A DNA stretch of 22,473 bases. Origin: Octopus sinensis (Eukaryota). The notes under the pieces were generated by a model, which was not told where the DNA came from, did no database searches, and was given only the letters and a program-made list of their open reading frames with translations. Numbering within the stretch: the stretch's first letter is position 1; each line of letters opens with the position of its first letter. This document shows positions 7,826-21,985 of this stretch, piece by piece. Made by a program: the position numbers and the translations under genes. The DNA lies in NCBI RefSeq assembly GCF_006345805.1, contig NW_021836926.1, forward strand, positions 1 to 22,473, in the 5' to 3' direction.

Positions 7826-8387
7826 CATTTCTACTCTAAGCGCAAGGACCGAAATTTTTGGGGACGGAGCTAGTCGATTAGATCGAACCCAGTACGCAAC
7901 TGGTACTTAATTTATCAACCCCCGAAAGGCAAAGTCGACCTCAGGGGAATTTGAACTTAGAACGTAAAGACTGGCGAAATACCTATTTCTTTACAACCCA
8001 CAAGGGACTAAACACAGAGGGGACAAACAAGGACAGACAAACGGAAAAAGTCGGTTTTATCGACCCCAGTGCGTAACTTATTTAATCGACCCCGAAAGGA
8101 TGAAAAGCAAAGTCGACCTCGGCGGAATTTGAACTCAGAACGTAACGGCAGACGAAATACCTATTTCTTTACTACCCACAAGGGACTAAACACAGAGAGG
8201 ACAAACAAGGACAGACAAACGGATTAAGTCGATTACATCGACCCCAGTGCGTAACTGGTACTTAATTTATCGACCTCAAAAGGATGTAAGGCAAAGTCGA
8301 CCTCGGCGGAATTTGAACTCAGAACGTAACGGCAGACGAAATACTGCTAAGCATTTAGCCCGGCGTGCTAACGTTTCTGCAGCCTTA
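7826..8387 (-). mobile_element. Trimeric tRNA-derived SINE, family C (octopus OR-like), flanked by TSD
   Basis: Three tandem units (about 8387-8162, 8161-7984, 7983-7826), each with (G)AGTTCAAATTCC...AGGTCGACTTTGC. TSD AAAATCATTATA at 7810-7821 and 8388-8399. Confidence 0.92.
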
Positions 8388-10915: not shown

Positions 10916-11155
10916 TTTTTTCCCTTCTCTTTTCTTTACTACCCACAAGGGGCTAAACACAGAGAGGACAAACAAGGAGAGACAAACAGATTAAGTCGAT
11001 TACATCGACTCCAGTGCGGAACTGGTACTTATTTAATCGACCCCGAAAGGATGAAAGGCAAAGTCGACCTCGGTGGAATTTGAACTCAGAACGTAGCGGC
11101 AAATACCGCTAGGCATTTCGCCCGCTGTGCTAACGTTTTCTGCCAGCTCGCCGCC
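10916..11155 (-). mobile_element. Monomeric full-length SINE family C
   Basis: Minus strand starts GGCGGCGAGCTGGCAGAAAACGTTAGC, has a GAGTTCAAATTC B-box and an A-rich tail. Short TSD AACATT at 10910-10915 and 11156-11161. Confidence 0.92.
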
Positions 11156-12081: not shown

Positions 12082-12486
12082 GGGCAGAAACGTTAGCACG
12101 CCGGGCGAAATGCGTAGCCGTATTTCGTCTGTCTTTACGTTCTGAGTTCAAATTCCGCCGAGGTCGACTTTACCTTTCATCCTTTCGGGGTCGATAAATT
12201 AAGTAACAGTTATGCAGTGGGGTCGATGTAATCGACTTAATCCGTTTGTCTGTCCTTGTTTGTCCCCTCTGTGTTTAGCCCCTTGTGGGTAGTAAAGAAA
12301 TAGGTATTTCGTCTGCCGTTACGTTCTGAGTTCAAATTCTGCCGAGGTCGACTTTGCCTTTCATCCCTTCGGGGTCGATAAATTAAGTAACAGTTATGCA
12401 GTGGGGTCGATGTAATCGGCTTAATCCCTTTGTCTGTCCTTGTTTGTCCCCTCTGTATTTAGCTCCTTGCGGGCAATAAAGAAATA
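12082..12486 (+). mobile_element. Dimeric SINE family C with 19-bp TSD
   Basis: Two units joined at AAAGAAATAG|GTATTTCGTCTG (~12303). TSD AGAATTCTT(G/T)AGTGCGAGC at 12063-12081 and 12487-12505. Confidence 0.93.
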
Positions 12487-12659
12487 AGAATTCTTTAGTG
12501 CGAGCTCCCCCCCCCCATGGCAAGATTTAAAAGTACCACTTGTAAAGTAAAGTAAACGTTACTTATACTTCTCTTTGCGCTTGCATCCACACCCTGGTTG
12601 ATATTGCCTATTTCTAGGCCCCGTAGAAGTGCTCAGCAGTAAAATTGGTTTTCCATTGA

Positions 12660-14474: not shown

Positions 14475-15690
14475 TATTGTGTCAACCCATGAATAAAGCG
14501 GATTTTTTATACTTCTTTTATTTTTCAAAATTAAGATAAACAAAATTCTTTTTTAATCTAAAATATACTCTCATTCATTTTCTACAATGCTCTTCCATCT
14601 ATCTGGTAGACTTGCAAGGCCCCTCTTCCAAAATTCATTTGTCTGCGATGAAAAGTACTCCTCCAGTACTGTTCTGACCTCGTCTACAGAATTCATATTT
14701 TTTCCGTCTAAATGATTTCGAAGATTGCGGAATAAACGATAATCAGATGGGGCAGTTATAAAAATTGGTGGGTGGGGCATCGTTTCCCATTCAAACTGCT
14801 CCAACCCTTGGAATGTCATCTCCGCTGTAGGTGGCCGAGCATTATCCTGATGGAAGAACACCTTTCGTCTTGAGACCAAATATGGTAGTTTTTCTTCTAA
14901 TGCTGACTTAAGCCGCTGAAGCTGCTCGCAGTAGATCGCCTTTGTTATCATTTGGTTTGGGTTTAAAAGTTCAAAGTGGACTAAACCTTTCATATCCCAC
15001 CAAACAGATAACAACACCTTACGTGTGTGAAGACCTTCTCTAGCCTGGGGTGCAGGTGCTTCTCCTTTCCCTGCTCACTGTCTTCGGAGCTGGATATTTT
15101 TATAGAGAACCCATTTCTTGTCACCAGTCACTATTTAGTCCAAGAAAGATTCATTTGTGAGACTTGACAACAAAGAAGAGCATACATTCACTCTCGGGGA
15201 GTTTGTGAGGAACCCATCGACCCAATTTGCTGACTTTTCCGATGGCACGCAAGTGTCGATGAATGGTTGAATGACCAAATCCAAGCTTCTCTGCTAGTTC
15301 CTCTACAGTTACGATGGGATTTTGTTCCACCAGGGTTTGCAGAACATTCCCGTCGAGCTCTACAGAACTTCCATGACGAGGCCCGTCTTCTAGGCTGTAG
15401 TTTCCTACTCGGAATTTCTGGAACCGCTGTTGAAACTGGCTTACGCTTATTGTCCGATCCCCAAATACTGCATTAATATTCCTCGCACTTTCCATTGCGT
15501 TGTTGCCTTTATTGAACTCATAAAGCAAAATATGCCGAATATGCTCCTTTGTCACTTCCATTATAGCTTTGAAAAAATAACTGTTAAATTCGAACTGCAC
15601 TCTTAAAAACTTGCACTAAGAATAAGTACGAGGTAAAATTACTACTTGCTTTTATAGCAAGTTGATGCAGGTAGTTTATCCTGTCACCCA
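14475..15690 (-). mobile_element. mariner (D,D34D-type) DNA transposon, near full length, 5' TIR apparently lost
   Basis: Left end TA-TTGTGTCAACCCATGAATAAAGCGGATTTTT is TIR-like and sits in a (TA)n run. Contains the transposase pseudogene. No matching TIR at ~15690. Confidence 0.9.
14553..15561 (-). pseudogene. mariner transposase pseudogene
   Basis: MEVTKEHIRHILLYEF (HTH) ... WVPHKL ... FLD*IVTGDKKWVLY ... KVLLSVWWD ... FHQDNARP ... HPP..APSDYRLF ... LPDRWKSIVENE*EYILD*. Contains in-frame stops, a frameshift near 15170 and a damaged YSPDL motif. Confidence 0.93.
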
Positions 15691-15920: not shown

Positions 15921-16447
15921 TATACCCCCCCCCCCACACACACATAAAATTAATAATAATGTACATATGTATATAATTATATCAAGGGAGCTTGGGTGAA
16001 AACGACCTGTCTCCAGCATACTTGAAGTGCCGATACTTTCAGAAAGCTATCAAAAGCTCCAGCTAAGTATACAGATGGCTGAAAGCGGGCTAGTGAGAGA
16101 GAATTAAGAAGACCTCACGTTAATTGTGAACTGGTTCCAATTTCTGCATGAAAGCAAAAAATAATTATATACATATCTACATTATTAATTTTATGTATTA
16201 ATTGCTAACTACTTGATAAAAATCATTATCGTGGTTTTTATTCTAATATTCTTTTATGAATTCATACATATATATATATAGTGATGGTATGTTGTTAACT
16301 TAATGTTGCAGTCCCAGGAAAGGGAAGAATGCTATTGCTATTTACCCCCAGGAAACACTGTTTCCAGTTAGCTACGTGAAACAAGCGTTCTGTGTCCCTA
16401 AGTTTTCAAACAGGGAAGATAAGCACCTCCACCCAGCAAAGCCAGCA

Positions 16448-16490
16448 TCCAAAGACTAGTTTCAGAGTTATTGCGCTTCATCAGTCTGGA
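16448..16490 (-). ncRNA. Minimal type-I hammerhead ribozyme motif (copy 1)
   Basis: Minus strand reads TCCAGA-CTGATGA-AGCGCAATAACTCT-GAAA-CTAG-TC-TTTGGA. Core intact, palindromic short stem III, 6-bp stem I with one G-U pair. Confidence 0.75.
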
Positions 16491-16711
16491 ATAGCTGTTG
16501 AAAACTTATAGAATTCCAAGTGAAATAAATTCACTGATCTACAAAATTAGAAATATTGCATTTCTAAATGTCGTAGAGAGACTTATACAGTAGCAGCACG
16601 ACAAAGTGACGGTTTGTTACCAACCCTAATGTGGCAGTCCCAGGAAATGGAAGGCTGAACAAACCATCACTTTCTCGTGAATAAGCATCGACAGCTCGCA
16701 AGCCTAGCTAT

Positions 16712-16754
16712 TCCAGACTGATGAAGCGCAATAACTCTGAAACTAGTCTCTGGA
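16712..16754 (+). ncRNA. Minimal type-I hammerhead ribozyme motif (copy 2)
   Basis: TCCAGA(16712-17)-CTGATGA(16718-24)-AGCGCAATAACTCT-GAAA(16739-42)-CTAG-TC(16747-48)-TCTGGA(16749-54). Perfect 6-bp stem I; predicted cleavage after GUC at 16748. Confidence 0.8.
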
Positions 16755-16760
16755 TGCTGG

Positions 16761-16764
<4 letters not shown>

Positions 16765-16802
<38 letters not shown>
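16765..16802. repeat. (TA)n microsatellite
   Basis: Seen directly. Confidence 0.95.

Positions 16803-19623: not shown

Positions 19624-19659
<36 letters not shown>
19605..19659. repeat. (AAT)n microsatellite
   Basis: Seen directly. Confidence 0.97.
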
Positions 19660-19660
<1 letters not shown>

Positions 19661-19684
19661 GTATCTGTCAAGACCTACCAAAAA

Positions 19685-20059
19685 CTGCTTGAGAGGCGGT
19701 TGGATGGAACCTACACCCGCCTCCTTATGAGAGCTCAAAATCTCTCGTGGAAGCGCCATCCAACCAAAATGCAAATATATGGGAAACTACCACCTGTGTC
19801 ATCTCTTGTGAAAGGTAGGAGAGTCCAGTTTGCTGGACATTGTTGTAGAGCTGAAAAAGTGGTAATTTCTACTCTTCTCCTCTGGAAGCCATCTACTCGC
19901 AATACCAGTGGGCGCACACTCTCCTACCCTGATGTAATCTCCAGGGATACAGGCATCCAGCAACAGGACCTCCGTAATGCCATGATGGACCGTGAAGTCT
20001 GGCGTAGCATGGTAAATTCCATTGTCTCGACCACGGTCGAACAATGATGATGAAGATGA
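19685..20059 (+). mobile_element. RTE-clade LINE 3' end (5'-truncated), ORF tail open to its stop, with (TGA)n tail
   Basis: LERRLDGTYTRLLMRAQNLSWKRHPTKMQIYGKLPPVS...RRVQFAGHCCRA...LLLWKP...AMMDREVWR, typical of the RTE C-terminus. Stop at 20045-47, followed directly by TGATGATGAAGATGA. Confidence 0.88.
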
Positions 20060-20333: not shown

Positions 20334-21985
20334 GGTGACTCACTTTCACCTTTAATATTCTGCATAGCCCTAATACCCCTTACAAGTGAATTAAACAGAA
20401 CAGGGTATGGGTATAAAATTGTCAATAAAAAAATAAGCCATCTATTTTATATGGATGACTTAAAACTTTATGGTAAAGACAATAATGAACTTGAAGGCCT
20501 ATTGCGCACCGTGAAAGCATTCAGCGATGACATCGGGATGGAGTTTGGACTTAAGAATGTGCCAGGCCACTTTCCAGAAAGGGAAAGTGAAGACCACAAA
20601 TTCAGTCGTGTTAGATGTTGACACAGTCATAAGAGAGCTTGAGCAAGAACAAACATACAAATATTTAGGGATAAATGAAGGCTCTGGTATTCAGCATGCA
20701 GCATGAAGAGAAGATCAGGAAGGAATGTTATAGGAGAGTTCGTGCAGTCCTGAAATCTGAACTAGATGCACGTACAAGGTGTTAGCTATAAATTCCTTAG
20801 CAGTTCCAGTTGTTACTTATAGCTACAATGTGTTGAACTGGAATATGAGTGAAGTAAAGAATATAGATAGGAAAATACGCAAGCTGCTGAGTTGTAATAG
20901 GATGCACCACCCAAAGGTAGACGTAGATCGCCTTTACCTTCCCAGAGCCCAAGGAGGTCGAGGCCTGATCCAATTTGAACTAGCTTACAAAACAAGCACA
21001 ATTGACTGGCCAAATATCTCGAAATATCGAATGACTGGATGCTAAAGCTCGTGGAAAATCACGAGACGAAAGAAGCTTCATTCTATCATAAAGGAAAGCA
21101 AAAAATTTGCTATTGATCTCGTGCAGGATACCCAAACTGAACAACCCGAGGGAAGTACGGCAACTATTGTTGCAAAGAAGGTGAAAATGATGGCAATGAA
21201 AAAAGCGCACGAGCAATTGGCTGATAGGTGGAGGAGAAACTCTGCACGGCAAATATGTGGCGCGCAGCAAACAGCTGATGTTGACCCAGAAGCAAACCCA
21301 TCAGTGGCTACGGAGCTCAGGGCTAAAAGCAGAGAGCGAAGGTTTCATCCTGGCTGCTCAAGATCAAAGCCTATTAACCCGGAACTACCAGGCCAATGTG
21401 ATGAAAATGGAGCAGACCCAAAATGCCGATTCTGCAACGACATGATTGAAACAGTGGACCATCTAATCTCTGGATGTAAAGTCTTAGCACCAGTGGAGTA
21501 TAAAGTAAGACATGACAGAGTTGGCCAATATATCCACTGGCTAATAAGTCGGCATTACAATATCAAAACTGCCGACAAGTGGTATAATCACCACCCTGAG
21601 GCTGTAACTGAAGGAGAAAATGTACCATTCTGTGGGACTTTCCATACATACAGACCGAACCATCAAGGCCAATAAACCAGATATTGTTGTGAAAGACCAA
21701 AACAATAAAGTTTGCTTATTGATCGACATGAGCATCCCTGTGATCATAATATCTCAGCGAAAGAGTTTGACAAGCTCAGAAATATAAAGACCTACTCATT
21801 GAATTGAGAAAATGTGGCATCTCAAGGCGGTTACAATACCAGTGATCGTAGGAGCACTAGGAATGATCAAGAAGAGAACCGAAAATTATATGAGAATGAT
21901 CCCTGGCTTACCATCCCTGCAAGAAGTGCAAAAGATTGTCTTAACTGGTACATCACACGTATTGAGAAGAGCATTGTCGTCGTGA
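20334..21985 (+). pseudogene. RT / zinc-knuckle / restriction-like endonuclease ORF remnant of the R4/Dong element
   Basis: GDSLSPLIFCIALIPL, SHLFYMDDLKL (YMDD 20448-59), FSDDIGMEFGL, YKYLGI, RLYLPRAQGGRGL, SEGFILAAQDQSL, CRFCNDMIETVDHLISGC, RHDRV, KPDIVVKD, IDMSIP, PVIVGALG, HVLRRALSS* (stop 21983-85). Many frameshifts. Confidence 0.93.

Follow-up and report, generated by a model that had tools for sequence, protein, structure and literature searches.

A 349-bp hammerhead repeat in Octopus sinensis: a decayed head-to-head copy likely inserted by a Penelope-like enzyme

Several described systems come closest to the repeat reported here. The animal non-LTR retrozymes have units of 350-390 bp in mussel and 330-350 bp in axolotl and carry hammerhead ribozymes of the canonical kind, with Penelope-like elements (PLEs) proposed as their likely mobilizers on the basis of co-occurrence and phylogeny (PMC7229834; 10.64898/2026.07.22.740005). 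The main text of these two reports does not discuss inverted insertions or tails. In PLEs themselves, as far as the accessible text of the following papers goes, an inverted, 5'-truncated copy and a one-sided tail of 30-40 bp are typical (Craig 2021, PMC8557442), and the same features have been described with the head-to-head arrangement as the commonest form and with palindromes at the junctions interpreted as self-priming (Arkhipova 2013, PMC3846280). A PLE protein cuts and extends both strands, prefers AT-rich DNA, and starts reverse transcription at two internal sites on its RNA, the interval between which is the tail, and PLE hammerhead mutants still insert (Frangieh 2024, PMC11167929). 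The minimal hammerheads of PLEs have a helix II of 7-8 bp, a helix I of 4-5 bp, and a loop 1 that is not well defined, and pairs of them are found on opposite strands, 100-700 bp apart (Cervera 2014, PMC4209133).

The DNA analyzed here is a stretch of 22,473 nucleotides from Octopus sinensis (the window; GCF_006345805.1, contig NW_021836926.1). It contains an insertion at 16280-16764 that we read, with a probability of roughly 0.85, as one decayed non-LTR retrozyme, a copy of a 349-bp hammerhead repeat, likely put in place in trans by a Penelope-like RT/GIY-YIG enzyme and carrying two ribozymes predicted to be inactive. Like the animal retrozymes in the reports cited above, this repeat has a noncoding unit of ~350 bp, a GC content of 40%, one canonical type I hammerhead with a weak helix III, and a circle predicted to be self-paired, and it shares with the axolotl retrozyme Amex2 the option of a U-U at the base of helix II, which is present in 17 of 61 family copies. 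Unlike the non-LTR retrozymes as those reports present them, its copies are mostly dispersed truncated monomers and head-to-head pairs with few arrays, and the copy in the window has one damaged ribozyme per strand. Its insertions resemble those of endonuclease-bearing PLEs with an inverted pLTR and a tail, in the 5' truncation, the head-to-head copy, the tail on one arm, the (TA)n targets, the few bases shared at junctions, and the occurrence of copies longer than one unit (PMC3846280, PMC8557442, PMC11167929). They differ from PLE insertions, as far as these papers describe them, in the lack of an RT/GIY-YIG frame in or beside the examined copies, in the longer tail, and in a hammerhead that is canonical rather than minimal.

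The locus in the window and the family it belongs to

A first-pass annotation of the window had reported two near-identical hammerheads in a 59-bp inverted repeat, and the repeat is indeed there: positions 16438-16496 and 16706-16764 are reverse complementary at 58 of 59 positions across a spacer of 209 bp, and the sole difference, the C at 16750 compared with 16452, changes the second pair of stem I from G-C to G-U in the left arm. Both arms contain CUGAUGA, a 14-nt stem II region, GAAA, the palindrome CUAG, and UC, and because a 33-nt pattern of the hammerhead core has 160 exact matches in the genome and 0 for the reversed control, the motif is not a product of chance. An Rfam search, the check that had been suggested for these motifs, reported no hammerhead family for the window at E<=1 or for 16380-16764 at E<=10 and is uninformative at this locus. 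While the motifs stand, the arms are not free-standing 59-bp units, as they sit inside larger copies of a repeat (Table 1). Damage sets both limits of the 59-bp repeat: the inner one lies at the 30-nt deletion of the left arm, and the outer one where the right arm is cut short at (TA)19. Most of the 209-bp spacer is made up of the left arm's upstream part. The sense hammerheads lie on opposite strands and face away from each other, and no transcript carries two sense copies.

Table 1. Features of the insertion at 16280-16764 and its flanks (window coordinates)
Feature	Position	Strand	Details
(TA)n tract at the left arm's short 3' end, likely the target of the insertion	16268..16280	.	Read from the sequence
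Left arm	16280..16653 (374 bp)	-	5'-truncated copy, marginally longer than one 349-bp unit; ends at the short 3' end (CCATCAC) and runs into TA repeat
Left hammerhead	16438..16496	-	Predicted cut after 16454; core 16484-16454; stem I contains G-U, stem II a C-U mismatch
Site of 30-nt deletion	16496..16499	-	17 + 13 nt; removes the 5' strand of distal stem I
Left partner of the inner inverted repeat	16597..16618	-	20/22 matching 16658-16679
Head-to-head (5' to 5') junction of the arms	16654..16657	.	
Right arm, 3' part lost	16658..16764	+	22-bp piece 16658-16679 and 88-bp piece 16677-16764
Right hammerhead	16706..16764	+	Loop 1 UAU 16709-16711; stem I 16712-16717/16749-16754; CUGAUGA 16718-16724; stem II 16725-16738 with C-U mismatch 16727/16736; GAAA 16739-16742; CUAG; predicted cut after 16748
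(TA)19 tract adjoining the truncated right arm	16765..16802	.	

Outside the 59-bp repeat, the left arm departs from the family majority at 12 of 238 positions, an ordinary age for a family with a median divergence of 5.9%. The right arm consists of 22 nt of the short-end/tail region, an internal deletion of ~90 nt at a shared GTG, and unit positions -71 to +16 numbered around the cut site, so that it stops 16 nt after the cut at (TA)19. The locus was compared with DNA runs from four studies, one of which is possibly the source of the window, over a stretch that ended at 16764, before the TA join. Contigs from runs X1 and X3 span 16580-16735, a region that takes in the junction and the beginning of the right ribozyme, and contigs from runs X5 and X6 cross the deletion in the left arm, in each case with 0 differences. 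An assembly artifact was considered and is rejected on the agreement of contigs from four DNA runs with parts of the locus. No second copy of the locus, either as a second allele or as an empty site, was present among 40 scored candidates, and the left flank is itself repetitive.

The surrounding window is rich in other repeats. A different repeat family at 15941-16273 meets the element across the TA tract that flanks the left arm and is apparently arranged back-to-back itself; no standard hammerhead core was seen in it. A broken mariner-type transposase occupies 14571-15615 on the minus strand, with Pfam matches in two frames, to HTH_48 and Transposase_1. A 178-184 bp repeat, probably a SINE, has copies in tandem and inverted at 7924-8344, 10925-11101, and 12084-12490, with 308 bp at 94% across 3.7 kb, and frames at 19625-20047 and 21046-21675 resemble C-terminal fragments of LINEs by eye, with no Pfam match.

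Two genome similarity searches with the repeat returned 1091 and 2017 first-look candidates, of which 40 were scored in each case, and the family has at least 160 copies with an exact core. A natural head-to-tail dimer at locus L002 defines the unit as 349 bp of noncoding sequence with a GC content of 0.40 and one type I hammerhead, within the bounds used for retrozymes (unit of ~150-450 bp, GC below 45%, one type I hammerhead). This dimer also shows what Li 2026 takes to mark an "active" element, namely two or more sense units in a row, each with a whole hammerhead; the locus in the window has ~1.1 units on one strand and no such consecutive pair. Onto the unit we mapped 59 loci, comprising 49 picked by similarity (the window included) and 10 picked by hand, 6 of the latter for their inverted look; 11 of the first 60 similarity picks had been dropped as same-place overlaps, one of which, L060, is really a neighboring copy. 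The median divergence from the family majority given above is taken over 83 segments. The 5' starts of the copies vary, and the 3' end is either short (CCATCAC) or lies ~45-65 nt further on, with the additional stretch referred to here as the tail. Two sense hammerheads in tandem-bearing loci are found at only 4 of the 59 (L002, L037, L100, and a distant pair in L092), and most family copies are therefore not arrays. Of 81 family 3' ends, 33 (41%) have a (TA)3 or (AT)3 no more than 25 nt away, compared with 148 of 1357 background windows (11%), and the locus in the window is TA-flanked on both sides. One natural 349-bp unit folded as a circle is predicted to be highly self-paired (z = -3.1, 40 shuffles).

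No RT plus GIY-YIG frame of the kind that lies between the pLTRs of an autonomous PLE was detected at the locus or within ~1.5 kb of the first 30 family loci. Near-identical copies together with their flanks are repeated 29 kb (L029, L030), 1.3 kb (L092), and 2.1 kb (L136, L137) apart, and these are local duplications or assembly repeats. Four runs presumed to be RNA contain contigs of family copies, which have the family letters at 16727 and 16711, leave 16654-16674 without cover, and show A>G and T>C differences indistinguishable from paralogues; they do not speak to expression or editing at this locus. Two of these contigs, of 363 and 609 nt from runs X15 and X18 (guessed RNA), cross the inversion junction of another copy, with the joint at 16480/16623. 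A literature search on octopus and cephalopod hammerheads, and on non-autonomous PLEs combining inversion, tail, and hammerhead, returned no paper on the 349-bp family, although the supplements of PMC7229834 and Craig 2021 (file S1) may list it.

Structure and condition of the hammerheads

Judged from its sequence, the family ribozyme is a canonical metazoan type I hammerhead of the retrozyme type. Helix I has 6 bp, a loop of UAC in 56 of 62 copies, and a distal stem I; helix II has 4 bp and a loop of CAAURA (CAAUGA or CAAUAA) in 55 of 62; and helix III is short, with 2 bp in the form AC-UA-GU containing the CUAG palindrome. The UAC and CAAURA loops may form a loop 1-loop 2 tertiary contact, with a possible likeness to the Schistosoma motif. 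The hammerheads had been called minimal, a label that does not fit a family with a 6-bp helix I and a defined loop, a 4-bp helix II, and helix III present. With the minimal hammerheads of PLEs, the family shares the type I core, a palindromic helix III suited to dimer cleavage, and pairs on opposite strands, which have already been reported at distances of 100-700 bp, and it differs from them, as described in PMC4209133, in the lengths of helices I and II, the defined loop 1, and the presence of helix III with its loop. The first-pass annotation was correct in seeing hammerhead motifs whose helix III is palindromic and in linking them to Penelope-type elements.

Core conservation among genomic copies and stem covariation had been named as checks; the former is seen within the family and the latter between two families. 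Counting stem pairs by coordinates, the core is intact in 44 of 62 projected copies, the core plus the three inner pairs of helix II in 37, and these plus all of helix I in 16. Between the 349-bp family and a 352-bp sister family described below, four of the six helix I pairs and two inner helix II pairs change on both sides, the palindrome of helix III changes from CUAG to CUCGAG, and the core is kept. These two-sided changes around a kept core imply that the fold is under selection in active elements, while changes within the older 349-bp family mostly break pairs, as expected for dead copies.

The two arms of the window retain the canonical type I core (CUGANGA / GAAA / UH), and the 6-bp helix I is present with six Watson-Crick pairs in the right arm and five plus the G-U in the left. 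The 4-bp helix II is lost in both arms to the C-U mismatch at 16727/16736. The weakness of stem II that had been pointed out from the sequence is thus real and is due to a mismatch private to the locus, as 49 of 61 other copies have A-U there. The stem II hairpin is calculated at +2.7 kcal/mol in the window versus -1.8 kcal/mol for the family type, and its pair probabilities are ~0.4 versus 0.94-1.0 in three other copies. Loop 1 in the window is UAU, compared with UAC in the family, and the left arm is also without distal stem I, the 5' strand of which is deleted. It is accordingly doubtful that a transcript from either strand would contain one active ribozyme, as had been suggested, since both arms share the stem II break. 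The G-U pair had also been viewed as a structure-preserving change, but the same stem I pair is altered in 7 of 61 other copies, in 6 of them to non-pairs, and, going by the aligned copies, the difference is one of many random changes in the family. The argument from efficient dimer cleavage does not carry over to this locus either, because the motifs are located on opposite strands, are never both sense on one RNA, and cannot dimerize in cis.

Folding does predict the long duplex that had been envisaged in a transcript through the locus, and whole-locus folds give the stems of the sense ribozyme a probability of 0.000 on either strand. If the duplex silences the ribozyme, as had been suggested, silencing would be a by-product and not a purposeful device. 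From either strand, the antisense arm is transcribed first, and the sense ribozyme would thus be trapped in the duplex, for which the geometry suffices and no selection is needed. Both ribozymes of this copy are predicted to be inactive.

Origin of the head-to-head layout

Two truncated copies joined 5' to 5' are found at 33 of the 59 family loci and at 25 of 48 loci other than the window that were picked by similarity alone. The inverted layout is a routine insertion product of the 349-bp family, which makes the finding at this locus an ordinary one, and a layout this frequent does not serve as a sign of a silencing or editing role, which had initially been suggested. Junctions range from -9 to +5 nt in 27 of the 33 inverted loci, the arms sharing a few bases, and both junction position and arm length differ at every locus. 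Nine other family loci, four of them hand-picked, carry a whole hammerhead on each strand. The 3' ends follow a stricter pattern: of 24 inverted loci with both ends scorable, 22 pair a short with a long end, 2 pair short with short, and 0 pair long with long, while 9 further inverted loci have one end damaged. The locus in the window has the 5' truncation with an adjacent head-to-head inverted copy and the (TA)n or AT-rich target on both sides; the tail on one arm only is seen at the level of the family, the end of the right arm being lost at this locus. At five loci (L021, L023, L016, L095, and L100), the inversion junction lies inside or directly beside the hammerhead, and such junctions may reflect stalling of reverse transcriptase at the structure.

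A young sister family was found by chance beside a PLE. Its unit is 352 bp and ~62% identical to the 349-bp unit (62% over 287 nt), and among 2219 candidates, the best copies are 94-98% alike. Its copies include L111:6452-6770 (G000:C8:18821939-18822299) and L114-L138, with a trimer at C8:82985146-82986165. The layout is inverted at 13 of 24 loci, with a hammerhead on each strand at 7, and at 12 of the 13, the arms have one end at 318-319 and one at 271-275, almost all leading into a TA repeat; as the loci were chosen with a long-end query, the informative part is that the other arm is never long. The two 3' ends are 43 nt apart, giving a tail of 43 nt, and either arm may be the longer one, with 651 versus 139 nt at L136 and 103 versus 329 at L123, a variation that simple fold-back would not lead one to expect. 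An arm identity of 98% is normal in this family. Helix III reads AC-UCGA-GU or AC-UCGG-GU (palindrome CUCGAG/CUCGGG), and the circle is predicted to be self-paired with z = -6.2 (40 shuffles). A third, older relative of the unit is found at L087:50-438, with the helix III palindrome CCCGGG.

Under the reading that we favor, in which a Penelope-like enzyme acts in trans, the enzyme would nick both strands of a (TA)n target, and the priming of two cDNAs would take place within a tandem or circular repeat RNA at two fixed positions, namely the short end and a point some 45-65 nt further on, so as to leave the tail. The two cDNAs would then be joined at their 3' ends. In the window, the left arm would be the short-end product, longer than one unit, and the right arm, which no longer has its original 3' end, probably arose as the long-end product and then lost ~210 bp; the 59-bp repeat would be the part of the overlap left by the deletions. 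A more specific proposal is that the strict short and long pairing in both families reflects the activity in vivo of a Penelope enzyme that primes from both strands of the target, using two fixed sites on a retrozyme RNA that is circular or multimeric; for this we judge the balance to be even.

The near-identity of the two arms calls for separate consideration. At subfamily sites, the arms of one locus agree at 269 of 348 (77%) compared with 54% between loci, and private changes shared by same-locus arms are four times those shared across loci, which implies that both arms of a locus derive from a single source lineage and afterwards diverge by a mean of ~10%. In the window, the arms differ at only 1 of 59 positions, whereas 31 other arm pairs have 425 of 4249 (10%) unshared differences, and it is conceivable, though doubtful, that arms of the same origin were later homogenized by gene conversion or hairpin-templated repair, a step that would add to the favored reading rather than replace it. 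Such a step is suggested by an uncorrected P of ~0.015-0.047 for 1/59 against ~10% expected, by the rarity of the shared UAU (2 of 62 projected copies, including the right arm itself) and of the shared GCG (3 exact genome matches, 2 of them at this locus), and by the ordinary age of the left arm outside the repeat (12/238). However, this P ignores the 32 pairs tested and the choice of the locus for its identity, so the signal is weak; the inner 22-bp repeat differs at 2 of 22 positions; and other pairs share private changes as well (7 at L016, 7 at L097, and 6 at L035), as expected if they were borne by the source RNA. The agreement of same-locus arms at subfamily sites and the overlap of few bases at junctions would also follow if a single cDNA had folded back and primed itself to give the inversion, or if antisense RNA had done so as proposed by Arkhipova (2013), instead of priming on two strands. 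We consider this unlikely, since the strict short and long pattern (22/24 and 12/13), with either arm the longer, would need exact stops at two sites, and the concordance at subfamily sites is well below 100%.

That the locus is a selected regulatory hairpin, silencing the ribozyme or feeding dsRNA, siRNA, or ADAR pathways, would agree with the near-perfect 59-bp duplex predicted on both strands and with the locus-specific sequence being unchanged in DNA runs of four studies, one of which may be the window source, but it is very improbable given that the layout is the default product of the family, that the ribozymes are damaged, with deletions in both arms and truncation of the right one, and that no host gene was recognized in the window, where Pfam searches on five frames named mariner fragments only. 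Long inverted arms around a short spacer with TA flanks could likewise suggest a MITE or another DNA element with 59-bp terminal inverted repeats; here, though, the left arm extends 160 bp beyond the repeat, the apparent spacer belongs to that arm, junction and arm length vary at every locus, and tandem units occur. The copy maps refute this candidate, as they contain no fixed terminal inverted repeats common to the copies, and we give it practically no weight.

Partner search and implications

If a Penelope-like enzyme inserts these repeats in trans, the genome offers candidates for that role, as it holds intact RT plus GIY-YIG frames of 775-781 aa. Intact PLE frames with RT and GIY-YIG are located at L107:1753-4092, L108-L110, and L111:3245-5569. 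The frames of the L107-L110 type, probably Neptune-like, carry a Cys motif ahead of the nuclease, and ~60-110 nt before their TA-flanked end lies a U3-A8 hammerhead variant whose palindrome is CAUG. The search for the autonomous partner covered 7 longer PLE stretches and, out of 147 matches, 30 GIY-YIG loci, none of which shares the terminal sequence of the unit; the hammerheads of the compared PLE loci are different (U3-A8) variants located in their 3' ends, and the sole likeness found came from sister retrozyme copies inserted nearby (L111, L087). No long PLE frame is present at L093, where a GIY-YIG remnant lies 2.2 kb away from a copy of the family, or at the same-strand pairs of L091 (2.8 kb apart) and L092 (1.3 kb apart). 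The tail of ~45-65 nt, or 43 nt in the sister family, exceeds the published 30-40 bp and counts against a PLE explanation.

The locus itself is minor, a dead copy among hundreds to thousands, and the 352-bp sister family is a far better test object. The family also calls for caution over near-perfect ribozyme hairpins, which in such genomes arise routinely from insertion, and it is a large source of incidental dsRNA. The combination of a tail with a head-to-head footprint provides support for the mobilization of animal retrozymes by PLEs that is independent of the co-occurrence and phylogeny from which it was proposed. If the strict pairing of short and long ends is indeed the footprint of a Penelope enzyme, it would constitute direct genomic evidence of PLE machinery inserting retrozymes with canonical hammerheads, and the 352-bp sister family would be a ready substrate for testing this and for finding the partner.
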